Shown piece by piece: positions 46,594-60,948 of a DNA stretch of 64,000 nucleotides. Positions within the stretch are counted from its first letter, which is position 1; each line of letters begins with the position of its first letter. The translations under genes were made by a program, and so were the position numbers. The notes under the pieces are model-generated. The model saw only the letters and a list, made by a program, of their open reading frames with translations, ran no database searches and was not told the origin of the DNA. The stretch is from positions 1 through 64,000 of IMG/VR virus record IMGVR_UViG_3300029142_000001. One strand, 5' to 3'. This stretch comes from a virus. Lineage: Duplodnaviria; Heunggongvirae; Uroviricota; Caudoviricetes.

Positions 46594-47436
46594 ATGCACA
46601 GACTAATTTCGTTGATACTATTTTGCATCGTATGTTTAAGCATAGGTACAAGTTCAGCATTTGCAAGTGGAGATTATCCGTATCCATATACAGGACCAAG
46701 TGATGGTCAGTCTGGATATGGATATGTTCCTGAACATCACTACGATCCAGGAACAGGAAATGGACCTACAGATCCATATACTATTTTCCTTTTGGAAATG
46801 ATTAATGGAGCAGATGAATATGAAGAAGTAAGCAAGAAGAATTTGTCTCTTTGTTTATTCTTTGCAACTACTCCGTATGAAAGATTGCAATGCATCATCG
46901 GCCATGCAAGTAACGATCGAATCGAAGCAGAAAAACACCATGCTTGGATGCAAAGACGAGACAATTACATGCAATTTTTATTCTGTAGATGTATGGAAAA
47001 TGCAGGAGATTTTGGTACATGTAACGATAAGTATCCAACACATCCAAACGATCCTACATGGTACCCAACTCCATCATATTGTGATGGACTAGATGAGGCA
47101 ACTTGCCCTGAATGGGATCCAGATGCTGGTGAAGATGGTTTCGGTGGTTGTGTGGGTCAAGGAGAAGGAGATTGGGATTGGCTTGAAAATCTGAATTACC
47201 CAGTTGGTGATCCAGAAAGCAATGACGGATTCGATTCTTGGACACAAGAAATGCACGATGTTTATGAGGACTGGAGAGTTTCAGTTGCAACAAACATGAG
47301 AGATTTCTATACAGATATTGAAAACGGAGAAACTCTTGAAGATGCAATCGTTTTCTTTTACATTGCATATGATGCTGATACAAGTGCTTTTATCTCATCA
47401 TTTTACGCAGAAGTTATCGCATCTGGTAACTATTAA
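46594..47436 (+). CDS. secreted cysteine-rich protein
   Basis: Signal peptide MHRLISLILFCIVCLSIGTSSAFA; acidic, Cys-rich mature region. Confidence 0.5.
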   Translation: MHRLISLILFCIVCLSIGTSSAFASGDYPYPYTGPSDGQSGYGYVPEHHYDPGTGNGPTDPYTIFLLEMINGADEYEEVSKKNLSLCLFFATTPYERLQCIIGHASNDRIEAEKHHAWMQRRDNYMQFLFCRCMENAGDFGTCNDKYPTHPNDPTWYPTPSYCDGLDEATCPEWDPDAGEDGFGGCVGQGEGDWDWLENLNYPVGDPESNDGFDSWTQEMHDVYEDWRVSVATNMRDFYTDIENGETLEDAIVFFYIAYDADTSAFISSFYAEVIASGNY

Positions 47437-47466
47437 GTATAAACACATTGCCCTATAAGGGCAATT

Positions 47467-47551
47467 GGAAGATAATCCCCGATGGTGAAGGGCCTCGCTT
47501 GGAAAGTGAGTGGAGCTTAATAGGCTTCTGGTTCGATTCCAGTATCTTCCG
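47467..47551 (+). tRNA. tRNA-Ser (anticodon GGA), class II
   Basis: Acceptor ggaagat/atcttcc, AC stem ctcgc/gtgag loop ttGGAaa, long variable arm, T-loop ttcgatt. Confidence 0.6.
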
Positions 47552-47580
47552 TTTTTAAAATCTCATTTTAAATAAAATCT

Positions 47581-47669
47581 GGAAAGTAGGCAACTATCGG
47601 TTCGTTGCACCACCCTGCTAAGGTGGCGTATTCTTCGGAGTACTAAGGGTTCGAGTCCCTTACTTTCCG
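47581..47669 (+). tRNA. tRNA-Ser (anticodon GCT), class II
   Basis: Acceptor ggaaagt/actttcc, AC stem ccacc/ggtgg loop ctGCTaa, long variable arm, T-arm aaggg-ttcgagt-ccctt. Confidence 0.65.
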
Positions 47670-47675
47670 CTTAAC

Positions 47676-47749
47676 ATTCCTGTAACTCAATTGGCCAGAG
47701 TGCTTGCTCGACATGCAAGTGGTTCCCAGTTCGAATCTGGGCAGGAATA
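47676..47749 (+). tRNA. tRNA-Val (anticodon GAC)
   Basis: Acceptor attcctg/caggaat, D actc/gagt, AC cttgc/gcaag loop tcGACat, T-arm cccag-ttcgaat-ctggg. Confidence 0.7.
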
Positions 47750-47762
47750 TTTTGAAAATTAC

Positions 47763-47790
47763 TTGACTTCCTCGAAATATCTCCTATAAT
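47763..47790 (+). promoter_or_regulatory. promoter (TTGACTTc-16-TATAAT)
   Basis: -35 at 47763-47768, -10 at 47785-47790. Confidence 0.55.
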
Positions 47791-47827
47791 GTATTATAAT
47801 GTATGTAAAGACTTGAATGGAGTTAAA

Positions 47828-48022
47828 ATGGTAGATCCTGTCATGGCTTTAATTATTTTGGGTGTAGGAATTTTATATTGTGTTATTCGTATTGCAACGA
47901 ATTCGCCCGAAAGAATGTATAAAATTCAGAAAAAAGCCTTCGAAAGACAGAAACGAACTGATGAAGCTTTTGCTTCATATTTGGGTGAATATTACAAAAT
48001 TAAAAATGATGTGTACAAGTAA
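47828..48022 (+). CDS. small membrane protein
   Basis: 64 aa, N-terminal TM helix. Confidence 0.45.
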   Translation: MVDPVMALIILGVGILYCVIRIATNSPERMYKIQKKAFERQKRTDEAFASYLGEYYKIKNDVYK

Positions 48023-48037
48023 TTATAGGAATTTATA

Positions 48038-48256
48038 ATGGAATTTGATCTTGAAAAAGTAATTGAAGAAATCATTGTTGGTAATTCAAATGGAATCAAA
48101 TATACTGCATTGATTGCAGAAGTTCTCGATATCGCACAATCTTCCGGAGCTATTGTAACTCTCGATGAGATCGAAAATGCTGTTACATCAAAGTATACTT
48201 ATCTCAAATACACATTCCAAGGGCGGGAAAAGTGGTTTGTTTTTAAGAATAGTTAA
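48038..48256 (+). CDS. hypothetical protein
   Basis: 72-aa ORF. Confidence 0.4.
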   Translation: MEFDLEKVIEEIIVGNSNGIKYTALIAEVLDIAQSSGAIVTLDEIENAVTSKYTYLKYTFQGREKWFVFKNS

Positions 48257-48268
48257 ACGGAGTATATC

Positions 48269-48727
48269 ATGAATACAATCAATGAATTCACAGATGAAGA
48301 ACTTCAGCAAGAACTTGATCGAAGAAAGATTCAAGCTGCTTGTGAAGAAACTCTAAAAAAGTTGAAGGAATGGGGAAATCCTTATGGAGTGTGGAGGATT
48401 TCAACAGAAGGTGATTGTGAAGGGCGTACAGTAAATGTTCTTGCAACTCGAAAAGGCCATATTGCTGATCTTGCAAGAATCTATGAGAGGGATAAGATGT
48501 ACACTCTCACATTCACAAAAATTGATTTGGATGAAGATGATATTGTAGATACGCCTTCAGAAAAAGGTTCATTCTCTCTTAATTATCACACTTTTCCATC
48601 AGAAGTTGGAGGACATCATCTTGCAATGAGTCAAAAAGTTCATATTGTACAAGAATGGATTGGACCTAATTTTATTGTAGAGAGTTATGAACGAGGATCT
48701 TTTATTGTTAGTAAGAAAAAAACATAG
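48269..48727 (+). CDS. hypothetical protein
   Basis: 152-aa ORF. Confidence 0.45.
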   Translation: MNTINEFTDEELQQELDRRKIQAACEETLKKLKEWGNPYGVWRISTEGDCEGRTVNVLATRKGHIADLARIYERDKMYTLTFTKIDLDEDDIVDTPSEKGSFSLNYHTFPSEVGGHHLAMSQKVHIVQEWIGPNFIVESYERGSFIVSKKKT

Positions 48728-48779
48728 TTTAAAATAATATGAAAGCCTTCATTTTCCTATATAACTATAGGAGAGTGAA

Positions 48780-49271
48780 ATGGAAAAGAAAGTTTTAAAT
48801 GATTTAATAAATTCTGGATTGACACATAAAGAAATTGCAAATAAGGTGGGATGTAGTCAAACCAATGTAAGATATTATATCAAAAAATATAACATTAAAA
48901 AAGGATATTGTATAGTATGTAATAATCAATTGCAAGGAAATCAAAGAAAATATTGTTCTGATCAATGTAAGGGAAGAATATATAAAGAAAATGCAAATAT
49001 ATATGAAAATCAAAAAAAGAGAGCAATTGAAAGAAAAATTAAATTAATAAATATGTGTGGTGGTGAATGTTCTGTATGTGGTTATAAAAAAAATATAGCA
49101 GCATTACATTTTCATCATATTTTACCGGATACAAAATTATTTCAATTAGATTCTAGAAAATGTGCAAATTCTAAATGGAGTACACTACTAACAGAAGTTA
49201 AAAAATGCTCTCTTTTATGTGCAAATTGTCATGCTGAATTACATCATAAAAAATACAATAATTTGATTTAG
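48780..49271 (+). CDS. HNH homing endonuclease with N-terminal HTH
   Basis: LTHKEIANKVGCSQTNVRYYI HTH; HNH core ALHFHHILPD...CSLLCANCHAELHHK. Confidence 0.6.
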   Translation: MEKKVLNDLINSGLTHKEIANKVGCSQTNVRYYIKKYNIKKGYCIVCNNQLQGNQRKYCSDQCKGRIYKENANIYENQKKRAIERKIKLINMCGGECSVCGYKKNIAALHFHHILPDTKLFQLDSRKCANSKWSTLLTEVKKCSLLCANCHAELHHKKYNNLI

Positions 49272-49357
49272 GGGCGAGTTCCATAGCGGCCTAATGGACC
49301 GGACTCATAATCCGGCGAGTTCACACTCAAACGCAGGTTCGAATCCTGTCTCGCCCA
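49272..49357 (+). tRNA. atypical class-II-like tRNA with CAT anticodon
   Basis: Perfect acceptor gggcgag/ctcgccc, D ccat/atgg, AC ccgga/tccgg loop ctCATaa, 17-nt variable region with gagt/actc stem, T-arm gcagg-ttcgaat-cctgt; 86 nt. Confidence 0.45.
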
Positions 49358-49376
49358 TTTTAAAGGAGAATATAAC

Positions 49377-49907
49377 ATGATTTGGCTGGGATGTATTTAT
49401 ATTAGTGTAATTCTTTTGTTGGTGGCCATTTTTGATCCTGGAGATTTTTTTGGATGTATAGCATTAATGTGGTTTATTTTATCTTTATTGATGCTCCTGG
49501 TACTCACTCCCGCTTTTTATGCTGAATCCCGAAGACTTAATCCGAATAGATTGGTTCAACAAAAAGTAATTTTTGAAGAATCTATTCTTCCATCGGAAGA
49601 AGGTTACTATGGTTTATATTTAAATGAATGGAGTGAATTTCATTATGTATCAACTGGATTTGCATTTAGATATTCAGATGGAACAAAAGATTTTGTAGAA
49701 TCGTACTCAATTTCCTTTTCAGATGATGTAGATGCTCCTACAGTATTTAAGTACAAGAATATCTATGAGGTAAATGATTTGTTTTTTCCTTCTTTCAAAT
49801 CGCACATTACTCATGAAGATGGTGTATATTATTTCGTATTTCCATCATCATATCGATCAGAATTTAATACAAAATTCATTACTACTACTTTGTACGAGGA
49901 TTTTTAA
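49377..49907 (+). CDS. membrane protein
   Basis: 176 aa, two N-terminal TM helices. Confidence 0.45.
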   Translation: MIWLGCIYISVILLLVAIFDPGDFFGCIALMWFILSLLMLLVLTPAFYAESRRLNPNRLVQQKVIFEESILPSEEGYYGLYLNEWSEFHYVSTGFAFRYSDGTKDFVESYSISFSDDVDAPTVFKYKNIYEVNDLFFPSFKSHITHEDGVYYFVFPSSYRSEFNTKFITTTLYEDF

Positions 49908-50275
49908 TGGAATGGTACTTTCTTATTATTCTGGCCATTTTTATCACAAAACACCTTATTGTTGATTTTTTCTGGCAGTCTGGATATGAAGTGGCAAACA
50001 AAGGAACTTATGGACATTTCGGTGGTATTTTACATACCGGAAAACATGTCATTGTTTCGGCTTTCTTTCTTATGTTTCTTGTTTCTCCTTTGACTCTTTT
50101 TCTTCTATGTGCATTTGAATTTGTGGTCCATTACCATATGGACTGGTTTAAGATGTGGTGGGGAAAAAGAAAGAAATTTACACCAAATGATGCAAAATTT
50201 TGGCATTGGATGGGAATAGATCAATATATACATTACTTTACTTATCTGATTATGGTTGCTATAATGCTTCTGTAA
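49907..50275 (+). CDS. multi-pass membrane protein
   Basis: 122 aa with 3-4 hydrophobic segments. Confidence 0.45.
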   Translation: MEWYFLIILAIFITKHLIVDFFWQSGYEVANKGTYGHFGGILHTGKHVIVSAFFLMFLVSPLTLFLLCAFEFVVHYHMDWFKMWWGKRKKFTPNDAKFWHWMGIDQYIHYFTYLIMVAIMLL

Positions 50276-50285
50276 GATAAAATTG

Positions 50286-50358
50286 GCTCCTGTATATCAA
50301 TGGCGAGATGGCTTCCGTTACATGGAAGAGGTTGCTGGTTCGAATCCAGCCAGGAGCA
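50286..50358 (+). tRNA. tRNA-Val (anticodon TAC)
   Basis: Acceptor gctcctg/caggagc, AC cttcc/ggaag loop gtTACat, T-arm gctgg-ttcgaat-ccagc. Confidence 0.7.
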
Positions 50359-50360
50359 TT

Positions 50361-50510
50361 ATGACAAAAGAAGAAGCAAACAAAAAGTTAGAAGAAATTA
50401 TTGAAAATTATAGGAAAGAATTTATAATTTTAGATAAAATTCGTAAAGATGAGCAGGAAAAATTTGATAATTCTTGGATAGGTAAAATTGTAAACAGATT
50501 GGAATTTTAA
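50361..50510 (+). CDS. small hypothetical protein
   Basis: 49-aa ORF beginning right after the tRNA; the longer listed ORF would overlap the tRNA. Confidence 0.3.
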   Translation: MTKEEANKKLEEIIENYRKEFIILDKIRKDEQEKFDNSWIGKIVNRLEF

Positions 50511-51085
50511 TTATGAAAAATAGCACAGATTTCCAAAAAAATGTCTAGAATATTTCATTATATTTTTTCATGTATGGAACCCATTATGGGAAATGATATG
50601 CAAGAATTTGTTTTAGAATGTGAAGAAGACTAAAAATGAATAATTTATCATATAACGAAGACAAAGCGGATTTAATCAGGAAGGCAGCAGTAAATGAAGC
50701 TTTTAAGTTTCTAGAAAATCCTGATGATCTCGATGTTTTAGAAAGATTAATAGAATATGGAACTATTTTGAAAAATATAAAAAATGAAAGTGAAGGAGCA
50801 TATAGTAATGGATATTGATATTTTGACAAGTGGACTGAAAGATTTTCTGAAATCATTTGACCCAACCCTTGAAACATGCTATAATGCTGATGACCCTTCA
50901 GAATGGTATACCGGAAATGCAGATGACGATATGAGCAATGGATATGATGCTGGATATCACGCGGCACAAGAACAAATTATGGGAATTGTGAAGGCAGCAG
51001 AAGCAGGTAGATAATATATACAAAGGCGGCGTGAAACTTAAACGGTCAAGACGAAACTTTGACTCCGGATTCGTAACCGGAATTT

Positions 51086-51158
51086 GGGACGGTAGCTTAG
51101 TTGGTAAAGCGTACCGCTGATAACGGTGAGATCATAGGTTCAAGTCCTATTCGTCCTA
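51086..51158 (+). tRNA. tRNA-Ile (anticodon GAT)
   Basis: Acceptor gggacgg/tcgtcct, D gctt-agttggta-aagc, AC taccg/cggtg loop ctGATaa, T-arm atagg-ttcaagt-cctat; resembles E. coli tRNA-Ile. Confidence 0.7.
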
Positions 51159-51190
51159 TTTTTTAGATATTATTCACAGGAAATTATAAA

Positions 51191-51379
51191 ATGAATACCA
51201 AGCATAAATCTATTAGGCATTCAAAGAAAAATCTACGAATCAAATCACATCATATTGATTCTAATTTTCCACCACGGCTTAATATTGATGGGATACAATT
51301 AAAATCATCTATCCCTACAACATATTCTACCGGAGATTATATTTTATGGGGACCAAAAAGATTTAGAACAGAAAGTTGA
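51191..51379 (+). CDS. hypothetical basic protein
   Basis: 62-aa ORF. Confidence 0.35.
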   Translation: MNTKHKSIRHSKKNLRIKSHHIDSNFPPRLNIDGIQLKSSIPTTYSTGDYILWGPKRFRTES

Positions 51380-51639
51380 ATATTATGGAAACTTTTGAAG
51401 ATAAAATTGATGAATTAATCAGTCTTTTAGAGTATATGAAGGATGAAATTCCATCAGAAGAATTAAAAGAACCTTCAAATATTTCAATTGGAATTGCAAT
51501 GCATGGATGGACGCATAGAAATTCAGATATGCATAGAACTGAATACCGAATGATACGATGGGCAGATATCTATACAAGAGGCATGGGTATAGAAGCATCA
51601 TTGGTAAAATCTAGACATTTTAGTAAAATTTCAGATTAA
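51376..51639 (+). CDS. hypothetical protein
   Basis: 87-aa ORF. Confidence 0.4.
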   Translation: MNIMETFEDKIDELISLLEYMKDEIPSEELKEPSNISIGIAMHGWTHRNSDMHRTEYRMIRWADIYTRGMGIEASLVKSRHFSKISD

Positions 51640-51645
51640 AATTTG

Positions 51646-51717
51646 GGGGTAGTAGCTCAGTGGTAGAGCTTTTCGTTGATAACGGAACGGTCGGAGGTTC
51701 GAACCCTCCCTGCCCTA
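51646..51717 (+). tRNA. tRNA with GAT anticodon (Ile, second copy)
   Basis: Acceptor ggggtag/ctgccct (2 GU), D gctc-agtggta-gagc, AC tttcg/cggaa loop ttGATaa, T-arm ggagg-ttcgaac-cctcc. Confidence 0.55.
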
Positions 51718-51743
51718 TTGTTTGACATTAAAGGAGATATATT

Positions 51744-52070
51744 ATGTCAACTCCAACAGGTGGAAATTCCTTGCATGTTCTTGGCTCAAAGCCTCTTCAT
51801 AGAAGGTATGATACAAAAATGTTCATGAAGTATATTCGACCATCGTATTACATGGCAAACGCTCCTGAATGTTTTTGCTTGTCTGTTTTCTTCTTCTGTA
51901 TTCTTGCAGGATTGATTCCTTTTACAAGCTTGCTTACTGGAAGCACTTTGCTTATTGGTTTGAGTGTACTTGGATTTATGTTTCTAGCTTCTGCTTTGTT
52001 TTTGATGCTTGGAATTTATTCAAAAATTTCTTATGCACGAGAGAGAAATAAGAAAAATTCCTCTACATAA
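51744..52070 (+). CDS. membrane protein
   Basis: 108 aa, two TM helices. Confidence 0.45.
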   Translation: MSTPTGGNSLHVLGSKPLHRRYDTKMFMKYIRPSYYMANAPECFCLSVFFFCILAGLIPFTSLLTGSTLLIGLSVLGFMFLASALFLMLGIYSKISYARERNKKNSST

Positions 52071-52077
52071 TAGTAAT

Positions 52078-52149
52078 GCTCTTCTGCCCGAATGGTTAGG
52101 GTCTGGATTGCAAATCCAGTATATTTCGGTTCGAATCCGAAGGGGAGCT
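52078..52149 (+). tRNA. tRNA-Cys (anticodon GCA)
   Basis: Acceptor gctcttc/ggggagc, AC ctgga/tccag loop ttGCAaa, T-arm ttcgg-ttcgaat-ccgaa. Confidence 0.65.
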
Positions 52150-52157
52150 TTAAAATT

Positions 52158-52229
52158 GTCCTTATGGTGATAGTGGTAACACACTTTCTTGGTACGAAAG
52201 AATCTCAGGTTCGATTCCTGATAGGGACT
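52158..52229 (+). tRNA. tRNA-Thr (anticodon GGT)
   Basis: Acceptor gtcctta/tagggac, AC ctttc/gaaag loop ttGGTac, T-arm tcagg-ttcgatt-cctga. Confidence 0.65.
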
Positions 52230-52243
52230 TTGGAGAATACACA

Positions 52244-52546
52244 ATGAATTTTTATGATGTGCATGGAAGAAGAATCTATGTTTATAGAGTTTACCATTAT
52301 GAATCAAATGAATTATATGTTACATCTCAAAAAGGTGTAGAAGATGAAATCAAAAAAATCATTAATAGAATTGAGATTTTGTTCAAAGAGATTATGGACT
52401 TAGATTATGATAATTCAGAACATGAAGAAATTGAGAAAAATCTAATTGATCAAATAAACTATTTACGAGAAAAAGCGTTTTCTAAATATGGACTCACTAA
52501 GATTGAAGCTGAAGAAGATCGTACTTTTATGAGTATGCATTTCTAA
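52244..52546 (+). CDS. hypothetical protein
   Basis: 100-aa ORF. Confidence 0.45.
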   Translation: MNFYDVHGRRIYVYRVYHYESNELYVTSQKGVEDEIKKIINRIEILFKEIMDLDYDNSEHEEIEKNLIDQINYLREKAFSKYGLTKIEAEEDRTFMSMHF

Positions 52547-52558
52547 AGAAGATTTGAT

Positions 52559-52798
52559 GTGAAAAGAACAGCAATTATCTATTTTAAAGACGGCACACAC
52601 ATAAAAACACAAAAACATATCTCTTCTAAACAGATTGAAAATTCATATTTATCTAGAACTGAAATAAGAGATATGATTGATAATGAAATTAGAAAATCTG
52701 TTAGGGCGTTTTTAGTTAGACATGATCGAAAAATTGAAAATATTGATTTCACCAGAACAAATTCAGCAATGATTAAATTTGTGTTTGAAGAATCTTGA
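52559..52798 (+). CDS. hypothetical protein
   Basis: 79-aa ORF. Confidence 0.4.
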   Translation: MKRTAIIYFKDGTHIKTQKHISSKQIENSYLSRTEIRDMIDNEIRKSVRAFLVRHDRKIENIDFTRTNSAMIKFVFEES

Positions 52799-52822
52799 CT
52801 TTCAAAAAATATACTCTATAAT
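52795..52822 (+). promoter_or_regulatory. promoter (TTGACTTT-16-TATAAT)
   Basis: -35 at 52795-52800, -10 at 52817-52822. Confidence 0.55.
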
Positions 52823-53033
52823 GAAGACAAAGGGAGATATTCATGAAACTTTGGTCTCTTAGAATGATGATCGCTTTTGCTCAATTTGTAAGTGCAATTA
52901 TTTGCATATTTACTTTGGCAGCAATTCGACCTTCATTTCAAACAAAATTTCAAATGAAGCTCCTTAGATCATATTGTGAAGATCTTGAAAAAGAACTACC
53001 CAAATCCAATATGTAAAAATTTCTTTAAATGGC

Positions 53034-53061
53034 TTGACTTTACATATTTTTATGTTATAAT
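53034..53061 (+). promoter_or_regulatory. promoter (TTGACTTT-16-TATAAT)
   Basis: -35 at 53034-53039, -10 at 53056-53061. Confidence 0.55.
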
Positions 53062-53079
53062 GTGTATAGGAGATTAATC

Positions 53080-53427
53080 ATGTTTGAAAATGAAGATTAT
53101 TGCGAGTCTGAATTTAATCAATTGATCGATTGTGTCTCATATGACCCAGAGGGAAAGGTTTCTGATTTGATTCGGGAGCTTCAAAAAATCAAAGAGAGAT
53201 ATGAGGGTGCCACAATCATTCAAGATGGGTATCCGGAAGATGGAAGATATTGTGTAGTCCATTATGTCCGAAAGACTCCTGAAGAGATTGAAGAATATAA
53301 AAAAGAACAAGAGGCCAAGGAACAAGAGAAAAGGCGAAGAGAAGAGAATCAACGAAAAGGCGATTTGATGATTATGAGAAATCTTGCAAAAAAGCATAAT
53401 ATTCGTATTGAATTTCCAGAAAATTGA
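53080..53427 (+). CDS. hypothetical charged protein
   Basis: 115 aa after GGAGATTAATC RBS. Confidence 0.45.
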   Translation: MFENEDYCESEFNQLIDCVSYDPEGKVSDLIRELQKIKERYEGATIIQDGYPEDGRYCVVHYVRKTPEEIEEYKKEQEAKEQEKRRREENQRKGDLMIMRNLAKKHNIRIEFPEN

Positions 53428-53446
53428 CTATATAATGCTACAACAT

Positions 53447-53520
53447 GAGAGTGAAGCTTATTAGGAAAAGCGGTAGATTTCCAATCTACAGTCTTGCGGG
53501 TTCAAATCCCGTCACTCTCT
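53447..53520 (+). tRNA. tRNA-Gly (anticodon TCC)
   Basis: Perfect acceptor gagagtg/cactctc, D gctt/aagc, AC gtaga/tctac loop ttTCCaa, T-arm gcggg-ttcaaat-cccgt. Confidence 0.7.
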
Positions 53521-53769
53521 TTACTCCTGTTGAGGATTCGCCAAAATCCAAGATAGCGGGACTAAAATTTGGGATAGATGCAAAGGACGATTTTAAATCT
53601 TGGCGGGTTTATTATGACAGTCTTGTTGAATACCAAATTTTAGGATTTTATAAATGGGAGTGTCGGCTCGGCTGTTAAGAGCAGTATGAATACTATAGAT
53701 CATGCTATTTGAGAAGATTGATCGTCTTAACTCAAGCACGCGGGTTCAAATCCCGACCACTTCCTGCCT

Positions 53770-53841
53770 GTCCCTGTAGTTTAACTGGGAAAACAGTTGA
53801 CTTGTAATCTACAGATCTCGGTTCGATTCCGAGCGGGGACT
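53770..53841 (+). tRNA. tRNA-Thr (anticodon TGT)
   Basis: Acceptor gtccctg/cggggac, D gttt-aactggga-aaac, AC gttga/tctac (one U-U) loop ctTGTaa, T-arm ctcgg-ttcgatt-ccgag. Confidence 0.6.
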
Positions 53842-53977
53842 TTGAAACTTGGTTAGGGCGGAAAGGGCACTGGAACTAACCACCAACCCTTTCCGTCAAT
53901 TTCCGGTTAAGCATAAAAAGCGATGCGTTCGCCTTGTAAGCGAAATAACTCGGGGCAGTACCGGGAACCGGATTTTT
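53842..53977 (+). ncRNA. structured GC-rich small RNA embedded in the tRNA cluster (non-tRNA)
   Basis: 9-bp perfect hairpin cggaaaggg/ccctttccg (53859-53895), then a 71-nt domain closed by tccggtt/aaccgga (53902-53972), then TTTTT; no ORF. Confidence 0.45.
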
Positions 53978-54049
53978 AGGACTATAGTGTAACTGGCAGC
54001 ACTAGAGACTCTGACTCTCTCAGTACAGGTTCGAATCCTGTTAGTCTTG
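53978..54049 (+). tRNA. tRNA-Gln (anticodon CTG)
   Basis: Acceptor aggacta/tagtctt, D gtgt/gcac, AC agaga/tctct loop ctCTGac, T-arm acagg-ttcgaat-cctgt. Confidence 0.65.
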
Positions 54050-54058
54050 TTTTCATCT

Positions 54059-54131
54059 AGGATCGTCGTATAACGGCTTATTATAGCGGGCTTTGAACCC
54101 GTTGATGGGGGTTCGATTCCCTCCGGTCCTG
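54059..54131 (+). tRNA. tRNA-Gln (anticodon TTG)
   Basis: Acceptor aggatcg/cggtcct, AC gcggg/cccgt loop ctTTGaa, T-arm ggggg-ttcgatt-ccctc; D-arm slightly irregular. Confidence 0.55.
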
Positions 54132-54154
54132 TTCAAAAATAAAATAAAAATTGC

Positions 54155-54183
54155 TTGACTTTTCGAGATAAATCTCCTATAAT
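54155..54183 (+). promoter_or_regulatory. promoter (TTGACTTT-17-TATAAT)
   Basis: -35 at 54155-54160, -10 at 54178-54183. Confidence 0.55.
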
Positions 54184-54211
54184 GGTATAGTACCAAATAG
54201 GAGATTTTTTA

Positions 54212-54685
54212 ATGCTTACTGAATCTATTACTCTGATGACAAAAACTCGTATTGGTAAATCTACTTGGAATGTGAAATTTCATCCCAGCGTGGAAACTTA
54301 TGAAAAGATTCGTTGCCTGATTGGGAAAAATTCTTCATTTTTTCGGGCTGAAAATCGAAATCGTTATACTAGTGAAATGACCTGGGATGAAATGATTGAG
54401 GCTGGAAAGAGCTATATGGTAGGGAGTGATGTCCCCACTAAGAAGTATCTTGCATCACATACAACTTACATGAATGATTCTCAGTGGCTTTACTGGGCTG
54501 TTCAGTGGGCATTTGAAAATGAAGATGGGCGATTGATTGTGAAAACGCATTCAAAAGATTATGAGATTTACCGTAGGGGTGAATGGGTTGAAATTGCTCT
54601 TCCTCATCATGGTCGAGGCGGTGAAAAGCATTGGGTTGTTCATAAGAGCAATCCAAACAAGAAGATTTTGATTAATGTTGATTGA
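54212..54685 (+). CDS. hypothetical protein
   Basis: 157-aa ORF after AATAGGAGATTTTTTA RBS. Confidence 0.5.
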   Translation: MLTESITLMTKTRIGKSTWNVKFHPSVETYEKIRCLIGKNSSFFRAENRNRYTSEMTWDEMIEAGKSYMVGSDVPTKKYLASHTTYMNDSQWLYWAVQWAFENEDGRLIVKTHSKDYEIYRRGEWVEIALPHHGRGGEKHWVVHKSNPNKKILINVD

Positions 54686-54693
54686 GAAATAAA

Positions 54694-54882
54694 ATGAAAA
54701 AGTATCGAGTTCAGTGGACATATTTGGTAGATAAATCTAGAACTGCAATTGTAGAGGCAGAATCAGAAGATGAAGCTTCTGAAATTGCATCCATGCTGGA
54801 AGATACTGATCCTAGAATGGTAGAACAACGAGATAAAACCGAACCATTGAATTGGGAAGTTGAGGAAATTGAAAATGACTGA
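54694..54882 (+). CDS. small acidic protein
   Basis: 62 aa. Confidence 0.4.
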   Translation: MKKYRVQWTYLVDKSRTAIVEAESEDEASEIASMLEDTDPRMVEQRDKTEPLNWEVEEIEND

Positions 54883-55495
54883 TCGAAAACTTACATCTTA
54901 TGGAGGGTCTGGATTTTCATATGAACAAGATGGAAAAGTTTATGATGTAGATGCTCATACCGATAAACAAAATTCCATTATCAGTATGCTTTTTGAGTAT
55001 GATTTTCGAAGGGTGGATAATGAATTTCTAGAAGAAAATGGATTTTATCCAGATGATGAGAATGTACATCATCTATTTCATAAAATGACAGATGCTGTTG
55101 ATGAATGGAAAGAAGAAAATCCAGGTGTTTTTGGATATAAACTAATGAAATTTATGGAAGATACAGTAAACAATGATGTTTTTCTTAGGAATCATGTTAC
55201 GGTTGCATATGTGGATGATGATTCACATGCAAGTTCCGTAGTATTTTTGGTTCCTCATTATACAAATTACAGATACATGGGAACATCTGTTTGGTATGTT
55301 CCTCAATGCACAGGAGAAGAAGATATTCGTTTTTTCCTGTACCCAGGGGCTCATAGAGAAATGATTCGTGCGTTGAATCTTATTGTTGAAAAATATTTTG
55401 ATGAAGGATATCCACAAGTAAAATCCCCAATGGACAGAGAAATAGATAGACTAAAAGGAGAACTTCTAGACACAGTTGATGGAGAAGAACAATGA
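54875..55495 (+). CDS. hypothetical protein
   Basis: 206-aa ORF. Confidence 0.45.
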   Translation: MTDRKLTSYGGSGFSYEQDGKVYDVDAHTDKQNSIISMLFEYDFRRVDNEFLEENGFYPDDENVHHLFHKMTDAVDEWKEENPGVFGYKLMKFMEDTVNNDVFLRNHVTVAYVDDDSHASSVVFLVPHYTNYRYMGTSVWYVPQCTGEEDIRFFLYPGAHREMIRALNLIVEKYFDEGYPQVKSPMDREIDRLKGELLDTVDGEEQ

Positions 55496-55857
55496 ATGTT
55501 GATTATGCAGATATTGGATCTTGCTTGCATACTGTCATGCGAAAATTTTTAAGTAGTGATGTATCAGCAATTGTTTGGAATTTCATTCATATGGATGCAG
55601 CAAATGATGCATGGGAAATTATTCTAAAGGATATTTCCAAAGAATTTGAAGAACTTGAACTAGATCCAGAAGATCCGGATAGTGTAAAAGATGAACAAAT
55701 TGCAAAAGTTCTCCGCTATGCATGGATTGAAAATTATAACCCATTTGATGCAAAAAGAGAAGAAACTATTCTTCGTGTAGCTGGAAGAGGATTTGATCAG
55801 GAAAATGATTGGCTTGGATTTGCAAATTGTCTTAGAGAATGGGTAATTGAATCATAA
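55492..55857 (+). CDS. hypothetical protein
   Basis: 121-aa ORF, ATGA overlap. Confidence 0.45.
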   Translation: MNVDYADIGSCLHTVMRKFLSSDVSAIVWNFIHMDAANDAWEIILKDISKEFEELELDPEDPDSVKDEQIAKVLRYAWIENYNPFDAKREETILRVAGRGFDQENDWLGFANCLREWVIES

Positions 55858-55867
55858 GATTTATCAA

Positions 55868-56173
55868 ATGAAAAAGAAACAATTAATTCGATATAATTTC
55901 AGAGAAGAGGTATTCAAGAGAGATGATTATCGGTGTAGATGTTGTGGTATAAAAGATGTAAAATTGGATGCCCATCATATTATTGATAGAAATAATATGC
56001 CAAATGGTGGATATGTGAAAGAAAATGGCATATCATTATGCGAACCATGTCACGAGAAAGCAGAGTTTGAACATCAGGGAATGGAGCCCCTTCCAGGGTA
56101 TAGCAGAAGAGAATTGTTTTTACTGATCAATTCAAATGAGAAATTGGCCAGATACAAATCAGAAAGACTTTGA
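55868..56173 (+). CDS. HNH endonuclease
   Basis: YRCRCCG...LDAHHIIDRNNMPNGG...CEPCHEKAE HNH core. Confidence 0.6.
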   Translation: MKKKQLIRYNFREEVFKRDDYRCRCCGIKDVKLDAHHIIDRNNMPNGGYVKENGISLCEPCHEKAEFEHQGMEPLPGYSRRELFLLINSNEKLARYKSERL

Positions 56174-56810
56174 TATGTGCTATAAATATCCTAGAACCTT
56201 TCATTTAGATTGTTCTCCTGGAGTGCAGTCTGATGATAAAATCTTTCCAGATATGAGTGTGTTGAAAAAGCATCGCTTCGTTATGACAGAAAAGATGGAT
56301 GGAGAAAACACCACTCTTTATCGTGATAAAATGCACGCTAGATCTTTGAACTATCGACATAACTATACTAGAGATTTGATTAGATCCTATCATGCTCTTA
56401 TCAAGTATGATATTCCACAGGGTTGGAGGATATGCGGAGAAAATCTTTCATATGTTCACAGTATTGAATATAAAGAATTGCCCCACTATTTCATGGTATT
56501 TTCTGTGTGGGATTCAAATAATAATTGTCTTTCATGGGAAGACACAAAATCATTTTGCTCCGATCGGGGAATCTATATGGTTCCAGAAATTGGAAAAGAT
56601 TTTACTGGAACTGTTGAAGACACTGCAAGATTGTTTATGGAATATGAAAAAAACAAAGAATGTGAAGGCTTTGTTTTGAGAAATCAGGATGCATTTTCAT
56701 ATGAAGATTTTGGAAAAAATGTATTTAAATGGGTAAGAGAAAATCATGTTCAAACGGATGAACATTGGCTAAAGAATGCCATCCCACAAAGGTATAATAA
56801 GGAGATTTGA
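56136..56810 (+). CDS. putative RNA/polynucleotide ligase (KxDG nucleotidyltransferase, Rnl2/DRB0094-like)
   Basis: KYPRTFHL near the N-terminus and TEKMDGEN motif I; alternative start at 56175 (MCYKYPRT); 5' end overlaps the HNH gene. Confidence 0.45.
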   Translation: MRNWPDTNQKDFDMCYKYPRTFHLDCSPGVQSDDKIFPDMSVLKKHRFVMTEKMDGENTTLYRDKMHARSLNYRHNYTRDLIRSYHALIKYDIPQGWRICGENLSYVHSIEYKELPHYFMVFSVWDSNNNCLSWEDTKSFCSDRGIYMVPEIGKDFTGTVEDTARLFMEYEKNKECEGFVLRNQDAFSYEDFGKNVFKWVRENHVQTDEHWLKNAIPQRYNKEI

Positions 56811-56811
56811 T

Positions 56812-57027
56812 ATGAAATTTGAAGTTGGGTGTGCCCCTGTTGTTTTGGTATTTATTGTATTTTTGATTCTTAAGCTGACCGGTGCTATTGGCTGGAGTTG
56901 GTGGTGGGTTACTGCACCAATTTGGATTCCTGCTGGAATTGCTGCAATTACTGGATTGTTTTGGATTGCATTTATTGTAGTTGTATTTCTTGGGGCACTT
57001 ACATATGGACTTCTTACCGCCAAATAG
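56812..57027 (+). CDS. small membrane protein
   Basis: 72 aa, three hydrophobic segments, GGAGATTTGAT RBS. Confidence 0.45.
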   Translation: MKFEVGCAPVVLVFIVFLILKLTGAIGWSWWWVTAPIWIPAGIAAITGLFWIAFIVVVFLGALTYGLLTAK

Positions 57028-57033
57028 GGGAAT

Positions 57034-57282
57034 ATGATGTTTGAAGTACTTTTATTTGTTTATATTATTGTAGGAATTGTTTTAACACTTCCATGTATGA
57101 TGATTATTTCAAATTTGGATGAAGATTTTTCTGCTATGATTGATAATGAATCAAAATCTTTGAATTATGATACCTTTCTCAATCTTTTAATAGTAATTTT
57201 GTTTGCTTCATCTGGTCCTTTCGTGGGAATTTATATTTATTTAAAATACAAAGCAGGGAGATCTATTGATGAAATTGTATAG
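57034..57282 (+). CDS. small membrane protein
   Basis: 82 aa, two TM helices. Confidence 0.45.
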   Translation: MMFEVLLFVYIIVGIVLTLPCMMIISNLDEDFSAMIDNESKSLNYDTFLNLLIVILFASSGPFVGIYIYLKYKAGRSIDEIV

Positions 57283-57637
57283 CGTTGGAGAAGATGAATT
57301 AAATGAATTTGATATAAAAGAATTAGAAAGATCATATTCCGTTGAATGGGGAGTGTATCATTACACCGAAGATGGATATGATGGATGGGGAAATCTTGTA
57401 TTTAAGACCACTGATGGAAAATATTTTGCACATGATTTTTCCCATTGTTCTTGTTTCGGTCCTTTGTCTTTTTGTGATCTTGGAATGCCTGAAGAAGTTG
57501 ATTTTATCTCTATGATTAGAGATATTAGAGGTCTTGAAAATGTCATGGTAAAAGATAAAAAATCAAAAGAATATCAAATGCTTAAAAAGATTGGAAGAAT
57601 TGAAAAAATTAAAATTTCTGAATTGATGAAATTGTAA
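57266..57637 (+). CDS. hypothetical protein
   Basis: 123-aa ORF. Confidence 0.45.
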   Translation: MMKLYSVGEDELNEFDIKELERSYSVEWGVYHYTEDGYDGWGNLVFKTTDGKYFAHDFSHCSCFGPLSFCDLGMPEEVDFISMIRDIRGLENVMVKDKKSKEYQMLKKIGRIEKIKISELMKL

Positions 57638-57686
57638 AAATCCATAAATAGTAAAGATCATTAACTATTAAAAAGGATCTTTACAG

Positions 57687-60041
57687 ATGGCAAATTACTA
57701 TATCCGCCAGGATGCTACTTCTGGCGATGGATCAGAAAATTCTCCATATGGCTCATTTACAGAATTTCTAGCAGCAGAATCGCCTTCTTCTGGTGATTCT
57801 GTTTTTATATCAAACCTTAAACCCCTTCTAGAAGGAGAAGTCACTATGACTGATCTAACTGGGGTGACTTTTGATGTTTGGGATGAAAGAAATGATGGAT
57901 CGAGATGGCAAAAATGGAATGCAGAATCTGCTACACCGGCGACACTTCATGCTACCGGTGCAGGATTTAGAGTATATAAAACTGCAACAGCAGTAAATGC
58001 AAATGCTTTAGGGGCAACAGAAGAATGGAGCAAATCTAAAGATTCAAATGGCAATCGTTATGGATTTCTAGAAGAACAAGCAAATACAACTGCATTAGAA
58101 ACAAATCGTGGACATTTTATCGATGGATCCAATATTTTGTTTGTTTCTGTGCCTCTTTCTACAGATACAACAGGAAAAGAATATCTTGTTCTGATTCCTG
58201 GTCATGGAATTATCATGACCGGATGTACAAATTGTACTATGAAAAATGGTGTTGTAGGTTTAACCACAGAAAATGGTAACGGTAACGGATATGGTATTCG
58301 AATTACCGGATCTAGTAAAAACAATACATTTATTGATATGGAATTTGATGGTTGTCAATATCATGGATTTGGTGATATTTCAAATTCTCCTACACACACA
58401 TTAACAAGACCAATTTTTAGAACACATATCCGAGGAACAGATTCTCAATATGTTGCATTTGGTAATAATGGGATTATCGAAAATTGTGTTGTTGATGGTG
58501 CCCATTTCTGGCCAGCACCTTGGATGTATGTTGATCAAACTTCTGTAGATGATTGGCAGTCATCTTCTTTGACGGCTGGAATCAAAGCTATTGCAGCACA
58601 CCATGCGGATGATACTGATTGTTCAACAGCAGTGCAAGGAATTGTTATTAAAAATTCTATACAACATCCAAATACATATCTCCCAGAAGTAAGATCTGAA
58701 TATGCAACATTTTCTGCAAATGCAACAAACCATCCAGTTCCTTCAGATTTAGATGATTGGGAAACATATCCGGTCGTGTTTAGAGATAGTGAAGCTTCTG
58801 GAGAAATTCAAGTTGGTGGAGGTTCAAAAGGCTCTACAAATTCTGTAAATCATGTAAATATTGCTATTGTTAGAAGTACTTTTGATATTGATGGATCTGA
58901 TGCATCCAGGCCAAATACTGCTTACGGTGGATTTATCGCAACGAGTTGTCAGTCTGTAGATGCTGATATTACCTCTAATATTCTTTGTGTTTCTTCTCTT
59001 CTGGCTGCAAAAACAAATTCTACGGCAGATACAAGAGTTATATTTAATCGATTAAACGGTGCAACTATGACTTTGATAAATTGCACACTGTATCTAAAAG
59101 GATCATACTCTGATAGACAGGCTATATGGAGCGGTGCGTCTAGTATGGGACAATTAAAAATTATTGATAGTATCTTTGTTGCGGATGAAGAAGATGGTGG
59201 AGATACAACACCAGGATTGCTAGCCGGTGGTGGAATGACACAAGCAAAAATTACTTCAGATTGTGTCATGGAAGGAAATTGGTATTCTCCTAATCTTTCA
59301 GATACTTACAACAATGCTGTTGGTGGAGTTAGTAAATCTTGGTGGCAATCAAATGTTGATGTTGCTGCAAATGATCCAGAATTTACAAGAACACCATCTT
59401 ATAATTCTTCAAATGAACCTTCTGTCAATATTAAAAATCTTAGATCAAATAGAAAAACTACTGGACCAGAAGGAAGAAATTCAAGACCATTCAATCAGAG
59501 ATATGGGCCAGATCAATATGGATTGGCAACTTCAAGAAAAGCTGGATTATGGGGAGTATCATCATCTAATGTTGATAGTCCTAATTGGTTAAGTCCTATT
59601 GAGCAAAAATCAGCAATTCTTACACAAAGAGGATGGGAAATTAGATCAAACGGTAATGGAAATCCAAATGCGATGGAAGTTATTGTAAGTGGTAATTTTG
59701 CAAATTCGGAATCAATTAATGAAGCACCAAGATTTTATGAAGGTTCGTATGATCTTTCTAGAACATTAGTGGGTGTTTCAGGTGCAGAAATCAATCCGTA
59801 TTTGATTGAAGTTGTAGACTCAAATAAAATTCTTGGAGAAGATACGGTAACAATTGGATCTACTTCTGGATTCCCTGGAGGCGTATATGTTGAACCAGCT
59901 TCAAATATTACAAGTCCTATAACCTTATTCAGAATTGTTGGAACTCCCGAAGTTACTGGAGAAGGAATTGGAAGTATTACCTTTGCTGATTCATATGGAT
60001 TAGAGGTTAATGCTCAAATAACCTATTCTATCGAAGAATAA
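57687..60041 (+). CDS. right-handed beta-helix (pectate-lyase fold) protein, possible tailspike/depolymerase or glycan-modifying enzyme
   Basis: 784 aa; YYIRQDATSGDGSENSPYGS N-terminal signature and repeated short beta-strand units (NCTMKNGVVGL, GIRITGSSKNNTFIDMEFDG...) typical of parallel beta-helix proteins. Confidence 0.5.
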   Translation: MANYYIRQDATSGDGSENSPYGSFTEFLAAESPSSGDSVFISNLKPLLEGEVTMTDLTGVTFDVWDERNDGSRWQKWNAESATPATLHATGAGFRVYKTATAVNANALGATEEWSKSKDSNGNRYGFLEEQANTTALETNRGHFIDGSNILFVSVPLSTDTTGKEYLVLIPGHGIIMTGCTNCTMKNGVVGLTTENGNGNGYGIRITGSSKNNTFIDMEFDGCQYHGFGDISNSPTHTLTRPIFRTHIRGTDSQYVAFGNNGIIENCVVDGAHFWPAPWMYVDQTSVDDWQSSSLTAGIKAIAAHHADDTDCSTAVQGIVIKNSIQHPNTYLPEVRSEYATFSANATNHPVPSDLDDWETYPVVFRDSEASGEIQVGGGSKGSTNSVNHVNIAIVRSTFDIDGSDASRPNTAYGGFIATSCQSVDADITSNILCVSSLLAAKTNSTADTRVIFNRLNGATMTLINCTLYLKGSYSDRQAIWSGASSMGQLKIIDSIFVADEEDGGDTTPGLLAGGGMTQAKITSDCVMEGNWYSPNLSDTYNNAVGGVSKSWWQSNVDVAANDPEFTRTPSYNSSNEPSVNIKNLRSNRKTTGPEGRNSRPFNQRYGPDQYGLATSRKAGLWGVSSSNVDSPNWLSPIEQKSAILTQRGWEIRSNGNGNPNAMEVIVSGNFANSESINEAPRFYEGSYDLSRTLVGVSGAEINPYLIEVVDSNKILGEDTVTIGSTSGFPGGVYVEPASNITSPITLFRIVGTPEVTGEGIGSITFADSYGLEVNAQITYSIEE

Positions 60042-60056
60042 TTTCTCAAATTCTAC

Positions 60057-60084
60057 TTGACAAATTCAAATCTCCTGCTATAAT
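60057..60084 (+). promoter_or_regulatory. promoter (TTGACA-16-TATAAT)
   Basis: -35 at 60057-60062, -10 at 60079-60084. Confidence 0.5.
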
Positions 60085-60104
60085 CATATAGTGGGAGATT
60101 TTTT

Positions 60105-60311
60105 ATGACGAATTTGTTGGAATGGGCTCTTAAAAATAGAGAAGAGCTAATTGAATGCCGTCCGAAAAGGGGATGGAATGCATATACTTTTCGACTCTTC
60201 ACGGAAGTAAGAATTCCAGAAATGAGCGAAAATGAAATTAAAATGCATGATTGGGAAAAAATTTCAGAAAAAATAGAGAAAAATTTGACTTTTGGCGGAA
60301 AACTCGTATAA
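60105..60311 (+). CDS. hypothetical protein
   Basis: 68-aa ORF after GGGAGATTTTTT RBS. Confidence 0.4.
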   Translation: MTNLLEWALKNREELIECRPKRGWNAYTFRLFTEVRIPEMSENEIKMHDWEKISEKIEKNLTFGGKLV

Positions 60312-60331
60312 TTAGTAGTACCAAATAACTT

Positions 60332-60405
60332 GTCCCTATAGTTTAAGTGGTTTAGAATTTCTGACTTTCAATCAGAGGATCCGGGTTCGAGCCCCGGTAG
60401 GGATG
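60332..60405 (+). tRNA. tRNA-Glu (anticodon TTC)
   Basis: Acceptor gtcccta/tagggat, AC tctga/tcaga loop ctTTCaa, T-arm ccggg-ttcgagc-cccgg; resembles E. coli tRNA-Glu. Confidence 0.6.
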
Positions 60406-60442
60406 CTTCTTCTTTGAAAAGTGAATGAAGGTAAAGATAAGT

Positions 60443-60517
60443 GGGGCGGTAGCTCAGTTTGGTAGAGCAGTTGGTTGAAGTCCAGCGTTGTCGCAGGTTC
60501 AATTCCTGTCCGCCCCA
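60443..60517 (+). tRNA. tRNA-Phe (anticodon GAA)
   Basis: Perfect acceptor ggggcgg/ccgcccc, D gctc-agtttggta-gagc, AC gttgg/ccagc loop ttGAAgt, T-arm gcagg-ttcaatt-cctgt. Confidence 0.7.
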
Positions 60518-60851: not shown

Positions 60852-60856
60852 CTTTT

Positions 60857-60928: not shown

Positions 60929-60948
60929 TTTATAATGATAGGTAAAAA

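Follow-up and report, generated by a model that had tools for sequence, protein, structure and literature searches.

tRNA-like stable RNAs encoded within phage tRNA gene clusters (T4 species 1 and 2; T5 RNA1, RNA2 and RNA3) have been known since the 1970s–1980s, and their function was never found. In the T4 record, rnaD and rnaC follow tRNA-Arg at the end of the tRNA gene run and are listed as RNAs of unknown function. The T5 record (NC_005859) holds eight stable RNAs in the tRNA region, including RNA1 and RNA2 ('tRNA-like stable RNA with unknown functions') and RNA3 ('putative tRNA-like RNA'). Here, a locus of this kind was analysed in positions 1 to 64,000 of the IMG/VR virus record IMGVR_UViG_3300029142_000001 (a stretch of 64,000 nt, hereafter the window). 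The source is a large, AT-rich (34% GC), lytic-type phage of the Caudoviricetes with no close relative among GenBank phages. The element under study fills the gap between tRNA-Thr(UGU), which ends at 53841, and tRNA-Gln(CUG), which starts at 53977/53978; this gap measures 135-136 nt (136 nt in the original prediction, which took it for a structured small RNA and a possible counterpart of T4 species 1 and 2). The gap RNA (53842-53976, plus strand) folds as two domains, a hairpin leader (domain 1) and a tRNA cloverleaf (domain 2). We read it as a cryptic, divergent tRNA-Thr(UGU)-like gene placed after a structured 60-nt leader, most likely an extra variant tRNA-Thr(UGU), and give this statement as a whole an even chance of being right. 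That domain 2 is the gene of a tRNA-derived cloverleaf RNA under structural constraint is held with high confidence.

In general type, the element belongs with the T4 and T5 RNAs. Like it, T4 species 1 and 2 are non-coding structured RNAs adjoining tRNA genes in a phage cluster, and species 1 (rnaC) likewise joins a 5' extension to a tRNA-like 3' portion. Unlike the element, however, rnaC keeps a canonical T arm (GGUUCGAAUCC), has no normal anticodon arm and carries an 8-bp acceptor stem. T5 RNA1, RNA2, RNA3 and RNAI/III/IV share with the element that they are non-coding and lie head-to-tail with tRNA genes, among small open reading frames (ORFs) and promoters. RNA3 (73 nt, beside tRNA-Asn) further resembles it in its non-standard T-loop, whereas RNA1 and RNA2 differ from it in a canonical T arm and an expanded middle, with folds showing acceptor and T-arm modules. 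RNAI and RNA3 encode CCA, which the element does not. Homology was assessed with a covariance model built from the element (R1). At E<=10, it detected no match in the T4 tRNA region (L007). Its significant matches in the T5 tRNA region were tRNA-Thr(UGU) with 32.6 bits and tRNA-Gln with 16.6 bits; a third, of 7 bits at E=1, fell inside a coding sequence, and none of the annotated stable RNAs was matched. A blastn search against 50,697 phage records was equally negative. A homologous relation with rnaC/rnaD of T4 or with the stable RNAs of T5 was rejected. The proposed T4 counterpart holds as a structured non-coding RNA in a tRNA cluster and fails as a homologue. In design, the element is the inverse of the T4/T5 RNAs, with the whole cloverleaf kept and the elbow loops changed, whereas in those RNAs the T arm is retained and the middle rebuilt.

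The features of domain 2 and its trailer are as follows (window coordinates).

53902-53973, plus strand: domain 2, non-canonical tRNA-Thr(UGU)-like gene (cloverleaf scan, fold, Rfam RF00005, ARAGORN -mt)
53902-53908/53966-53972, plus strand: acceptor stem, 7 bp (tccggtt/aaccgga)
53909-53910, plus strand: A8A9
53911-53926, plus strand: D arm (4-bp stem, 8-nt loop)
53915-53922, plus strand: D-loop AAAAAGCG, non-canonical, without G18G19, G kept at the G19 position
53927, plus strand: G26
53928-53944, plus strand: anticodon arm (5-bp stem, 7-nt loop)
53933-53939, plus strand: anticodon loop CUUGUAA, U33 and A37 present
53935-53937, plus strand: anticodon UGU (Thr)
53945-53948, plus strand: variable loop (4 nt)
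53949-53965, plus strand: T arm (5-bp stem, 7-nt loop)
53954-53960, plus strand: T-loop GGCAGUA, non-canonical, U54, U55 and A58 lost, C56 kept
53973, plus strand: discriminator U (U73)
53974-53977, plus strand: UUUU 3' trailer or spacer before tRNA-Gln(CUG), assigned from the trailer pattern of the cluster

All 21 stem pairs of domain 2 are formed (21/21), and the spacing is canonical (7/2/4-8-4/1/5-7-5/4/5-7-5/7). The 7-bp stem that had been described as closing a second domain is the acceptor stem; what had gone unrecognised is the complete Thr(UGU) cloverleaf within it. This cloverleaf is both the minimum free energy (MFE) and the centroid structure of domain 2, which is one of only two sequences in the set with a cloverleaf as MFE structure; at -23.2 kcal/mol, it ranks as the third most stable of the 16 cloverleaves in the cluster. 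A strict cloverleaf scanner, demanding canonical geometry with at most one mismatch in 21 pairs, was applied to 128 kb, covering both strands. It yielded 16 hits, all on the plus strand of the window and none on its minus strand; 15 correspond to tRNAs called by ARAGORN and the sixteenth, with zero mismatches, is domain 2. As a chance control, the scan was repeated on the dinucleotide-shuffled window (2 hits per 1.28 Mb) and on the shuffled local tRNA operon (0 hits per 0.84 Mb). Owing to this low hit rate, the chance of finding such a cloverleaf in the gap is about 1e-4.

Domain 2 departs from the consensus at its elbow. Its tertiary positions read A8, A14, A18, G19, G54, G55, C56 and G58, of which only A14, G19 and C56 are conserved, and a G19-C56 pair is possible. 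All other tRNAs of the strict set have GG in the D-loop, and their T-loops follow UUCxAxx in 14 cases and read AUCGUUA in one; two of the phage's called tRNA-Lys genes likewise have A8. Hand alignment gave approximately 50% identity to either tRNA-Thr, the phage's own or that of T5. Features in common with T5 tRNA-Thr(UGU) are A8A9, the GCAU/AUGC D stem and the upper anticodon arm (GC-CUUGUAA-GC); with the upstream tRNA-Thr(UGU), the anticodon loop CUUGUAA and the 5' strand of the T stem (CUCGG); and with the phage's own tRNA-Lys genes, AAGCuU...AaGC. The features common to domain 2, T5 tRNA-Thr and these tRNA-Lys genes place it within phage tRNA lineages. Cloverleaf geometry and U33/UGU/A37 are like those of a canonical tRNA-Thr(UGU), and genomic position, leader and trailer resemble those of the neighbouring tRNAs; a 60-nt hairpin leader rather than a short spacer, however, precedes it.

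Rfam assigned domain 2 to the tRNA family (RF00005) with 34.1 bits (gathering threshold 29; E 5.1e-6), a score obtained by searching 136 nt only, where filters are laxer; the Rfam scan that had been suggested as a check was thus positive for tRNA and for no other family above chance level. Domain 2 was not reported at the gathering threshold over the window, nor at E<=10 over 501 nt, as it is lost to filters in these longer searches. ARAGORN in its metazoan-mitochondrial mode (-mt) called Thr(tgt) at 53902-53973. This call was dropped as stand-alone evidence, because the mode produces 17 extra calls per 64 kb, and the strict cloverleaf scan with shuffles was used instead. Standard gene finders miss domain 2 because its D-loop (AAAAAGCG) has no GG and its T-loop (GGCAGUA) no UUC..A. 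By the curated covariance model, it is a member of the tRNA family; by its tertiary nucleotides, it is not. At 60686-60765 (plus strand), in a 250-nt gap between tRNA-Phe and tRNA-Tyr, the false-positive-prone -mt mode also reported a putative tRNA-like fold whose anticodon has four bases (gtat). In T5 (NC_005859, 20000-55000), standard ARAGORN missed the annotated tRNA-Gly UCC, tRNA-Trp CCA and tRNA-Ile2 CAU; with these three annotated T5 tRNAs missed too, default gene finders seem to under-call phage tRNAs generally. According to a note in NC_005859, T5 tRNA-Gly with a replaced anticodon is an effective amber suppressor.

Relatives of the element were sought by similarity and by pattern. Megablast and blastn searches against the 50,697 phage records returned nothing. 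Exact, loop-only and transition-tolerant (degenerate) patterns were derived from both domains, from the adjacent tRNA-Thr and from the T arm of tRNA-Gly; none of them matched in IMG/VR or the JGI metagenomes (the collection searched does not contain the source contig itself), and GTDB genomes gave no match or unrelated tRNAs only. The only copies found were identical ones, on contigs L003 (JGI 3300029145) and L004, the latter of which starts just downstream of the element. A route through synteny also failed. The upstream neighbouring ORF is an orphan. The 157-aa ORF (54212-54685) and the 784-aa ORF (57687-60041) have homologues with 46-52% identity in otherwise unrelated phages (L001, L002, L005, L006, L008-L010), which share that one gene only; one of these, a T4-like contig, has a tRNA cluster of its own, and others are temperate phages in which the gene lies beside the terminase. 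The two ORFs behave as single mobile genes. Queries with the RNA ligase and the 784-aa protein returned nothing in IMG/VR. A second covariance model, derived from the phage's own tRNAs, was dropped because MAFFT misplaced the anticodon and variable regions.

Several points weigh against an extra variant tRNA-Thr(UGU). The conserved tertiary nucleotides U8, G18, U54, U55 and A58 are not present in domain 2, a loss that, in bacteria, speaks against the RNA being handled in the normal way by RNase P, EF-Tu and the ribosome. Its Rfam tRNA score is the lowest in the window (34 vs 40-71 bits), and ARAGORN leaves it uncalled with bacterial settings, both by default and with -ps90, -ps80 and -ps70. 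The form of its anticodon arm (CGC-CUUGUAA-GCG) also occurs in ordinary bacterial tRNA-Thr, so that this arm bears no specific anti-nuclease signature. A canonical tRNA-Thr(UGU) is already present 60 nt upstream of domain 2, and the variant-tRNA model does not account for the 60-nt hairpin leader. Finally, with no relatives among GenBank phages, IMG/VR, JGI metagenomes or GTDB, the reading draws no support from covariation or conservation.

Some of these points would equally fit a decaying tRNA pseudogene, that is, an old tRNA-Thr(UGU) duplicate that has lost its D- and T-loop consensus next to an inert spacer, whose hairpin would be incidental. Consistent with it are the loss of U8, G18, U54, U55 and A58, the failure of default gene-finder settings, the adjoining canonical isoacceptor and the lack of conservation evidence; phage arrays do hold pseudogenes, and T5 tRNA-Gln2(CUG) is flagged as one in its record. 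This explanation is nevertheless considered unlikely. Despite an identity of about 50%, no stem pair of the 21 is broken, U33, anticodon and A37 are unchanged and the two flank signatures are preserved, whereas neutral decay to that level should break stems, and random sequence gives such a cloverleaf only about once per 0.6-1.3 Mb. In addition, the changes are focused in exactly two mutually interacting loops, and the cloverleaf is among the most stable of the cluster.

For a variant tRNA-Thr(UGU) with an altered elbow, there are precedents. tRNA-Pyl, which has neither G18G19 nor T-Psi-C, still decodes amber, and most mitochondrial tRNAs also lack these motifs (PMC7609411); given the example of tRNA-Pyl, a role of the element in translation is conceivable. 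Like the element, tRNA-Pyl and type II mitochondrial tRNAs combine a full cloverleaf with D- and T-loops devoid of the conserved interaction motifs (PMC7609411). They differ from it in having compensating features, such as a short D loop, an anticodon stem of 6 bp or a variable loop of 3 nt, and partners dedicated to them, whereas the arm and loop lengths of the element are standard.

The transcriptional setting of the element is defined by the following features.

53408-53436, plus strand: sigma-70-like promoter TTGAAT-17-TATAAT (promoter scan), preceding tRNA-Gly
53770-53841, plus strand: canonical tRNA-Thr(UGU) (ARAGORN and Rfam, 61.9 bits)
53978-54049, plus strand: tRNA-Gln(CUG) (ARAGORN and Rfam), next gene of the transcript
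54059-54131, plus strand: tRNA-Gln(UUG), after tRNA-Gln(CUG)

The operon comprises, in this order, tRNA-Gly, a 135-nt spacer, an odd tRNA-like RNA, tRNA-Thr (which has a U-U mismatch in its anticodon stem), the element and the two tRNA-Gln genes, and is most likely driven by the promoter at 53408-53436. The next promoter-like site (54155-54183) lies past both tRNA-Gln genes, and no terminator-like site except T-arm look-alikes was detected on the plus strand between the two promoters. As these promoters bound the operon, the element would be part of a single polycistronic tRNA precursor. The usual spacers between tRNAs of this operon measure 4-8 nt. The 135-nt non-coding spacer after tRNA-Gly (53521-53655, plus strand) showed moderate predicted structure (-31.8 kcal/mol, z-score -2.2). 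In total, ARAGORN called 24 tRNA genes between 46.2 and 63.2 kb, mixed with small ORFs and sigma-70-like promoters in a layout reminiscent of the T5 tRNA region; no tRNA of the cluster (46188-63246) encodes CCA.

The U-run that had been noticed immediately before tRNA-Gln is present (TTTTT, 53973-53977) and includes the discriminator U73. UU directly follows the discriminator in 15/16 cloverleaf tRNAs of the cluster, against a TT background of 0.106, which looks like a putative 3'-processing signature; on the other side, the leader of domain 2 ends in caauu, as does that of tRNA-Ser(GGA). Since the UU trailer is shared by 15/16 tRNAs, the U-run is a generic 3' trailer, not a terminator. A transcription terminator or attenuator, whose GC-rich stems and U-run would modulate read-through into tRNA-Gln, might be suspected from the U5 run after a 7-bp stem. 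However, the stem preceding the U-run closes a three-way junction rather than a simple hairpin, a terminator scan made no call at 53966-53977, and the two downstream tRNA-Gln genes have no promoter of their own. An intrinsic terminator was rejected on the grounds of the multi-branch loop, the missing call and the generic UU trailer, and such a function is regarded as extremely improbable.

Domain 1 occupies the remaining 60 nt of the gap and contains the following features.

53842-53901, plus strand: domain 1, 60-nt structured leader or spacer (folding)
53857-53867/53887-53897, plus strand: 11-bp hairpin GGCGGAAAGGG / CCCUUUCCGUC with a 19-nt loop at 53868-53886 (folding)
53850-53856, plus strand: 5' tail UGGUUAG, candidate pseudoknot strand, complementary to 53876-53882
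53876-53882, plus strand: loop segment CUAACCA, candidate pseudoknot partner, complementary to the 5' tail

The perfect 9-bp stem given in the original prediction (cggaaaggg/ccctttccg) was located at 53859-53867/53887-53895 and can be extended to 11 bp. Folding, which had been suggested as a check, gave an MFE of -45.7 kcal/mol for the entire element (z-score -2.62; 2/200 shuffles as good) and -21.7 kcal/mol for the first hairpin alone (z-score -3.45; 2/200 shuffles as good). The GC content had been described as far above the local background. At 0.49, it does exceed that of the coding flanks (0.27-0.42) and equals that of the neighbouring tRNA genes (0.42-0.56); it is tRNA-like, not exceptional. 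The gap had also been said to contain no ORF. In practice this holds, the sole ORF over the gap being a mechanical 47-codon TTG ORF (53849-53992) that runs into tRNA-Gln and has no ribosome-binding site visible upstream of its start; a small protein gene was rejected for that reason. Besides tRNA, searches of the element for riboswitch, ribozyme, transfer-messenger RNA (tmRNA) and small RNA (sRNA) families gave just chance-level Rfam matches of at most 13 bits, and riboswitch, ribozyme and tmRNA readings were rejected for lack of Rfam support.

The 5' tail and the hairpin loop share a Watson-Crick run of 7, with runs of at least 6 occurring by chance at a frequency of 0.03-0.065 (shuffles). 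This complementarity is suggestive of a possible pseudoknot in domain 1. Because merely 0-2 nt separate the two candidate stems, a full H-type pseudoknot would be sterically strained. Alternatively, the functional product might be a stable sRNA, consisting of the 60-nt hairpin/pseudoknot RNA or the whole 135-nt RNA, while the cloverleaf would mainly be a processing handle at which RNase P sets the 3' end of the sRNA. In the MALAT1/mascRNA system, RNase P cleavage at the 5' end of a tRNA-like structure sets the 3' end of the upstream RNA. Domain 1 is the thermodynamically most unusual part of the element, its tail is complementary to its loop over 7 nt, a structured spacer of 60 nt stands out from the 4-8 nt spacers of the operon, and the T4 and T5 records annotate stable RNAs of unknown function head-to-tail with tRNAs. 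Such an sRNA is still judged very improbable: domain 1 has no Rfam family at E<=10, no paralogue within the window (R1) and no homologue, the complementarity is marginally above chance and the full pseudoknot strained, and a processing handle needs no intact anticodon loop.

Three further uncalled elements of the window follow the design of T4 species 1 and T5 RNA1/RNA2 more closely, in that they keep a canonical T arm (53656-53765, ~63371-63483 and ~63490-63606). The first is the odd 110-nt tRNA-like RNA between tRNA-Gly and tRNA-Thr (plus strand). Its acceptor stem GGGAGUG/CACUUCC contains G3-U70, the identity pair for alanine, and further parts are a D arm, an 'anticodon' stem of 7 bp that closes a 10-nt loop, and a long variable arm; its T arm is the same as that of tRNA-Gly, 240 nt upstream. 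Rfam matched it to tRNA-like tmRNA ends below threshold (20 bits, E 3e-6), and ARAGORN called it tRNA-Ser(gct) with a 12-nt 'intron' at lowered thresholds only. The other two (both plus strand) combine a canonical T arm, an acceptor strand and a UU trailer (GTACAGGTTCGATTCCTGTCACTGGAC-TTT and AATCAGGTTCGAATCCTGATATCAATA-TTTT). No Rfam match was obtained for either; with introns allowed, ARAGORN called ~63371-63483 as tRNA-Ala(tgc) with a 19-nt insert.

If the gap encodes a variant tRNA-Thr(UGU), it would be co-transcribed from the promoter at 53408-53436 with tRNA-Gly, the odd tRNA-like RNA, tRNA-Thr(UGU) and the two tRNA-Gln. Host tRNA-processing enzymes would excise domain 2, with RNase P cleaving at 53901/53902 and a 3' endonuclease after U53973, and CCA would be added post-transcriptionally, as proposed because no tRNA here encodes it. 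The predicted products are a tRNA-like RNA measuring some 72 nt before CCA is added and a 60-nt hairpin RNA (53842-53901), which may be stable owing to its 11-bp stem. Of the elbow contacts, G19-C56 alone is retained, and this unusual arrangement may change which enzymes of the host recognise the RNA. ACA accounts for 39% of the Thr codons in the long ORFs of the window, so that the demand for a UGU reader is high. A role of the element as a tRNA-Thr back-up is possible, although we put it at somewhat less than an even chance.

Counting the element, same-anticodon duplicates are present in the window for Ile GAU, Lys UUU, Tyr GUA, Asn GUU and Thr UGU. Aberrations were observed in several second copies (60856-60929, 61974-62057 and 62499-62584): the second tRNA-Lys(UUU) has the T-loop AUCGUUA and A8, the second tRNA-Tyr(GUA) has the anticodon loop CCGUACA (C33, C37), and 13 extra nt are inserted into the variable region of the second tRNA-Asn(GUU). 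An ORF with a PD-(D/E)XK endonuclease domain (PF11645; 60872-61378, plus strand) starts within the variant tRNA-Lys(UUU) gene (60856-60929), an overlap that recalls the T5 HNH endonuclease genes overlapping tRNA genes. The duplicated Lys UUU, Asn GUU, Thr UGU and Tyr GUA tRNAs match known targets of anti-phage nucleases (PMC12409363, PMC12445682, PMC11555353). AriB attacks Lys UUU, Thr UGU and Asn GUU (PMC12409363); the lethal action of P2 OLD is to cut the anticodon arm off tRNA-Thr(UGU), and tRNA-Thr copies encoded by phages rescue by taking the place of the lost tRNA (PMC12445682); tRNA-Tyr is a target of retron and Septu effectors (PMC11555353, PMC13096335). By analogy with these systems, we infer that the element may help to evade host tRNA nucleases. 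Nuclease-resistant phage tRNA-Thr(UGU) genes (of T5 and others), which relieve the toxicity of PARIS/AriB and P2 OLD, resemble it in the UGU anticodon and in their setting, a tRNA-rich lytic phage with Lys UUU, Asn GUU and Tyr GUA nearby. Their D and T loops are normal and decoding of ACA has been demonstrated for them, whereas the loops of the element are non-canonical.

Compared with the determinants of AriB in E. coli, the element carries G39, G41 and A16/A17 in place of U39, A41 and U16, and its anticodon stem contains no CNG/CNG pseudo-palindrome pair. The view of G39 as a specific anti-AriB adaptation is weakened by the same stem-closing pairs (CGC...GCG) in ordinary bacterial tRNA-Thr. 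The element could instead be a non-translating tRNA mimic, a decoy or sponge bearing a tRNA-Thr(UGU) anticodon arm and a disabled elbow, that binds, titrates or inhibits a host enzyme directed at tRNA-Thr(UGU); candidate targets are AriB/OLD-type Toprim nucleases, toxSAS enzymes of the FaRel2 type and threonyl-tRNA synthetase itself. An anticodon loop identical to that of genuine tRNA-Thr(UGU) together with replaced elbow nucleotides would suit such a mimic, as would the status of this tRNA as a prime target of AriB and P2 OLD (PMC12409363, PMC12445682). The AriB authors themselves raise competitive inhibition by over-expressed viral tRNAs (PMC12409363), yet the OLD rescue tRNAs acted by replacement and not by competitive inhibition (PMC12445682). 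In the element, G39 and A16 stand in for U39 and U16, on which AriB depends, changes that would weaken rather than strengthen binding of an AriB-like enzyme. FaRel2 selects tRNA-Gly and tRNA-Thr (PMC11245113), and the operon has a canonical and an aberrant copy of both. The window is rich in RNA-repair genes, but no protein partner is evident nearby, and the whole argument draws on analogies with E. coli systems. We consider a mimic of this type decidedly unlikely. The more specific proposal that the 135-nt RNA is a dedicated anti-defence decoy against an AriB-/OLD-like Toprim nuclease or a tRNA-modifying toxin, perhaps held or stabilised by the upstream pseudoknotted hairpin, is regarded as quite improbable.

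The RNA-repair set of the window comprises an Rnl1-like ligase, two RNA_ligase proteins (PF09414) and RtcB (26777-27874, 31339-32313, 42574-43845 and 56136-56810); four such enzymes within one 64-kb window are unusually rich. A NAMPT gene is located at 28151-29533. A class II (B12-dependent) ribonucleotide reductase with an intein carrying a LAGLIDADG endonuclease domain is encoded at 22138-25560 (plus strand), its top phage matches being just ~40-44% identical.

For phage genomics, the escape of a structurally perfect tRNA-like gene from the bacterial settings of ARAGORN and the default filters of Rfam means that tRNA counts in phage genomes may be too low. Phage tRNAs for Lys(UUU), Thr(UGU), Asn(GUU) and Tyr have now been shown to defeat host tRNA-cleaving immunity. 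If the decoy explanation were true, T4 and T5 could be using their tRNA-like stable RNAs as decoys of this sort as well. As an elbow-altered second tRNA-Thr(UGU) beside aberrant duplicates and four RNA-repair enzymes, the element is a testable candidate that would link the T4/T5-type RNAs to tRNA-based counter-defence.

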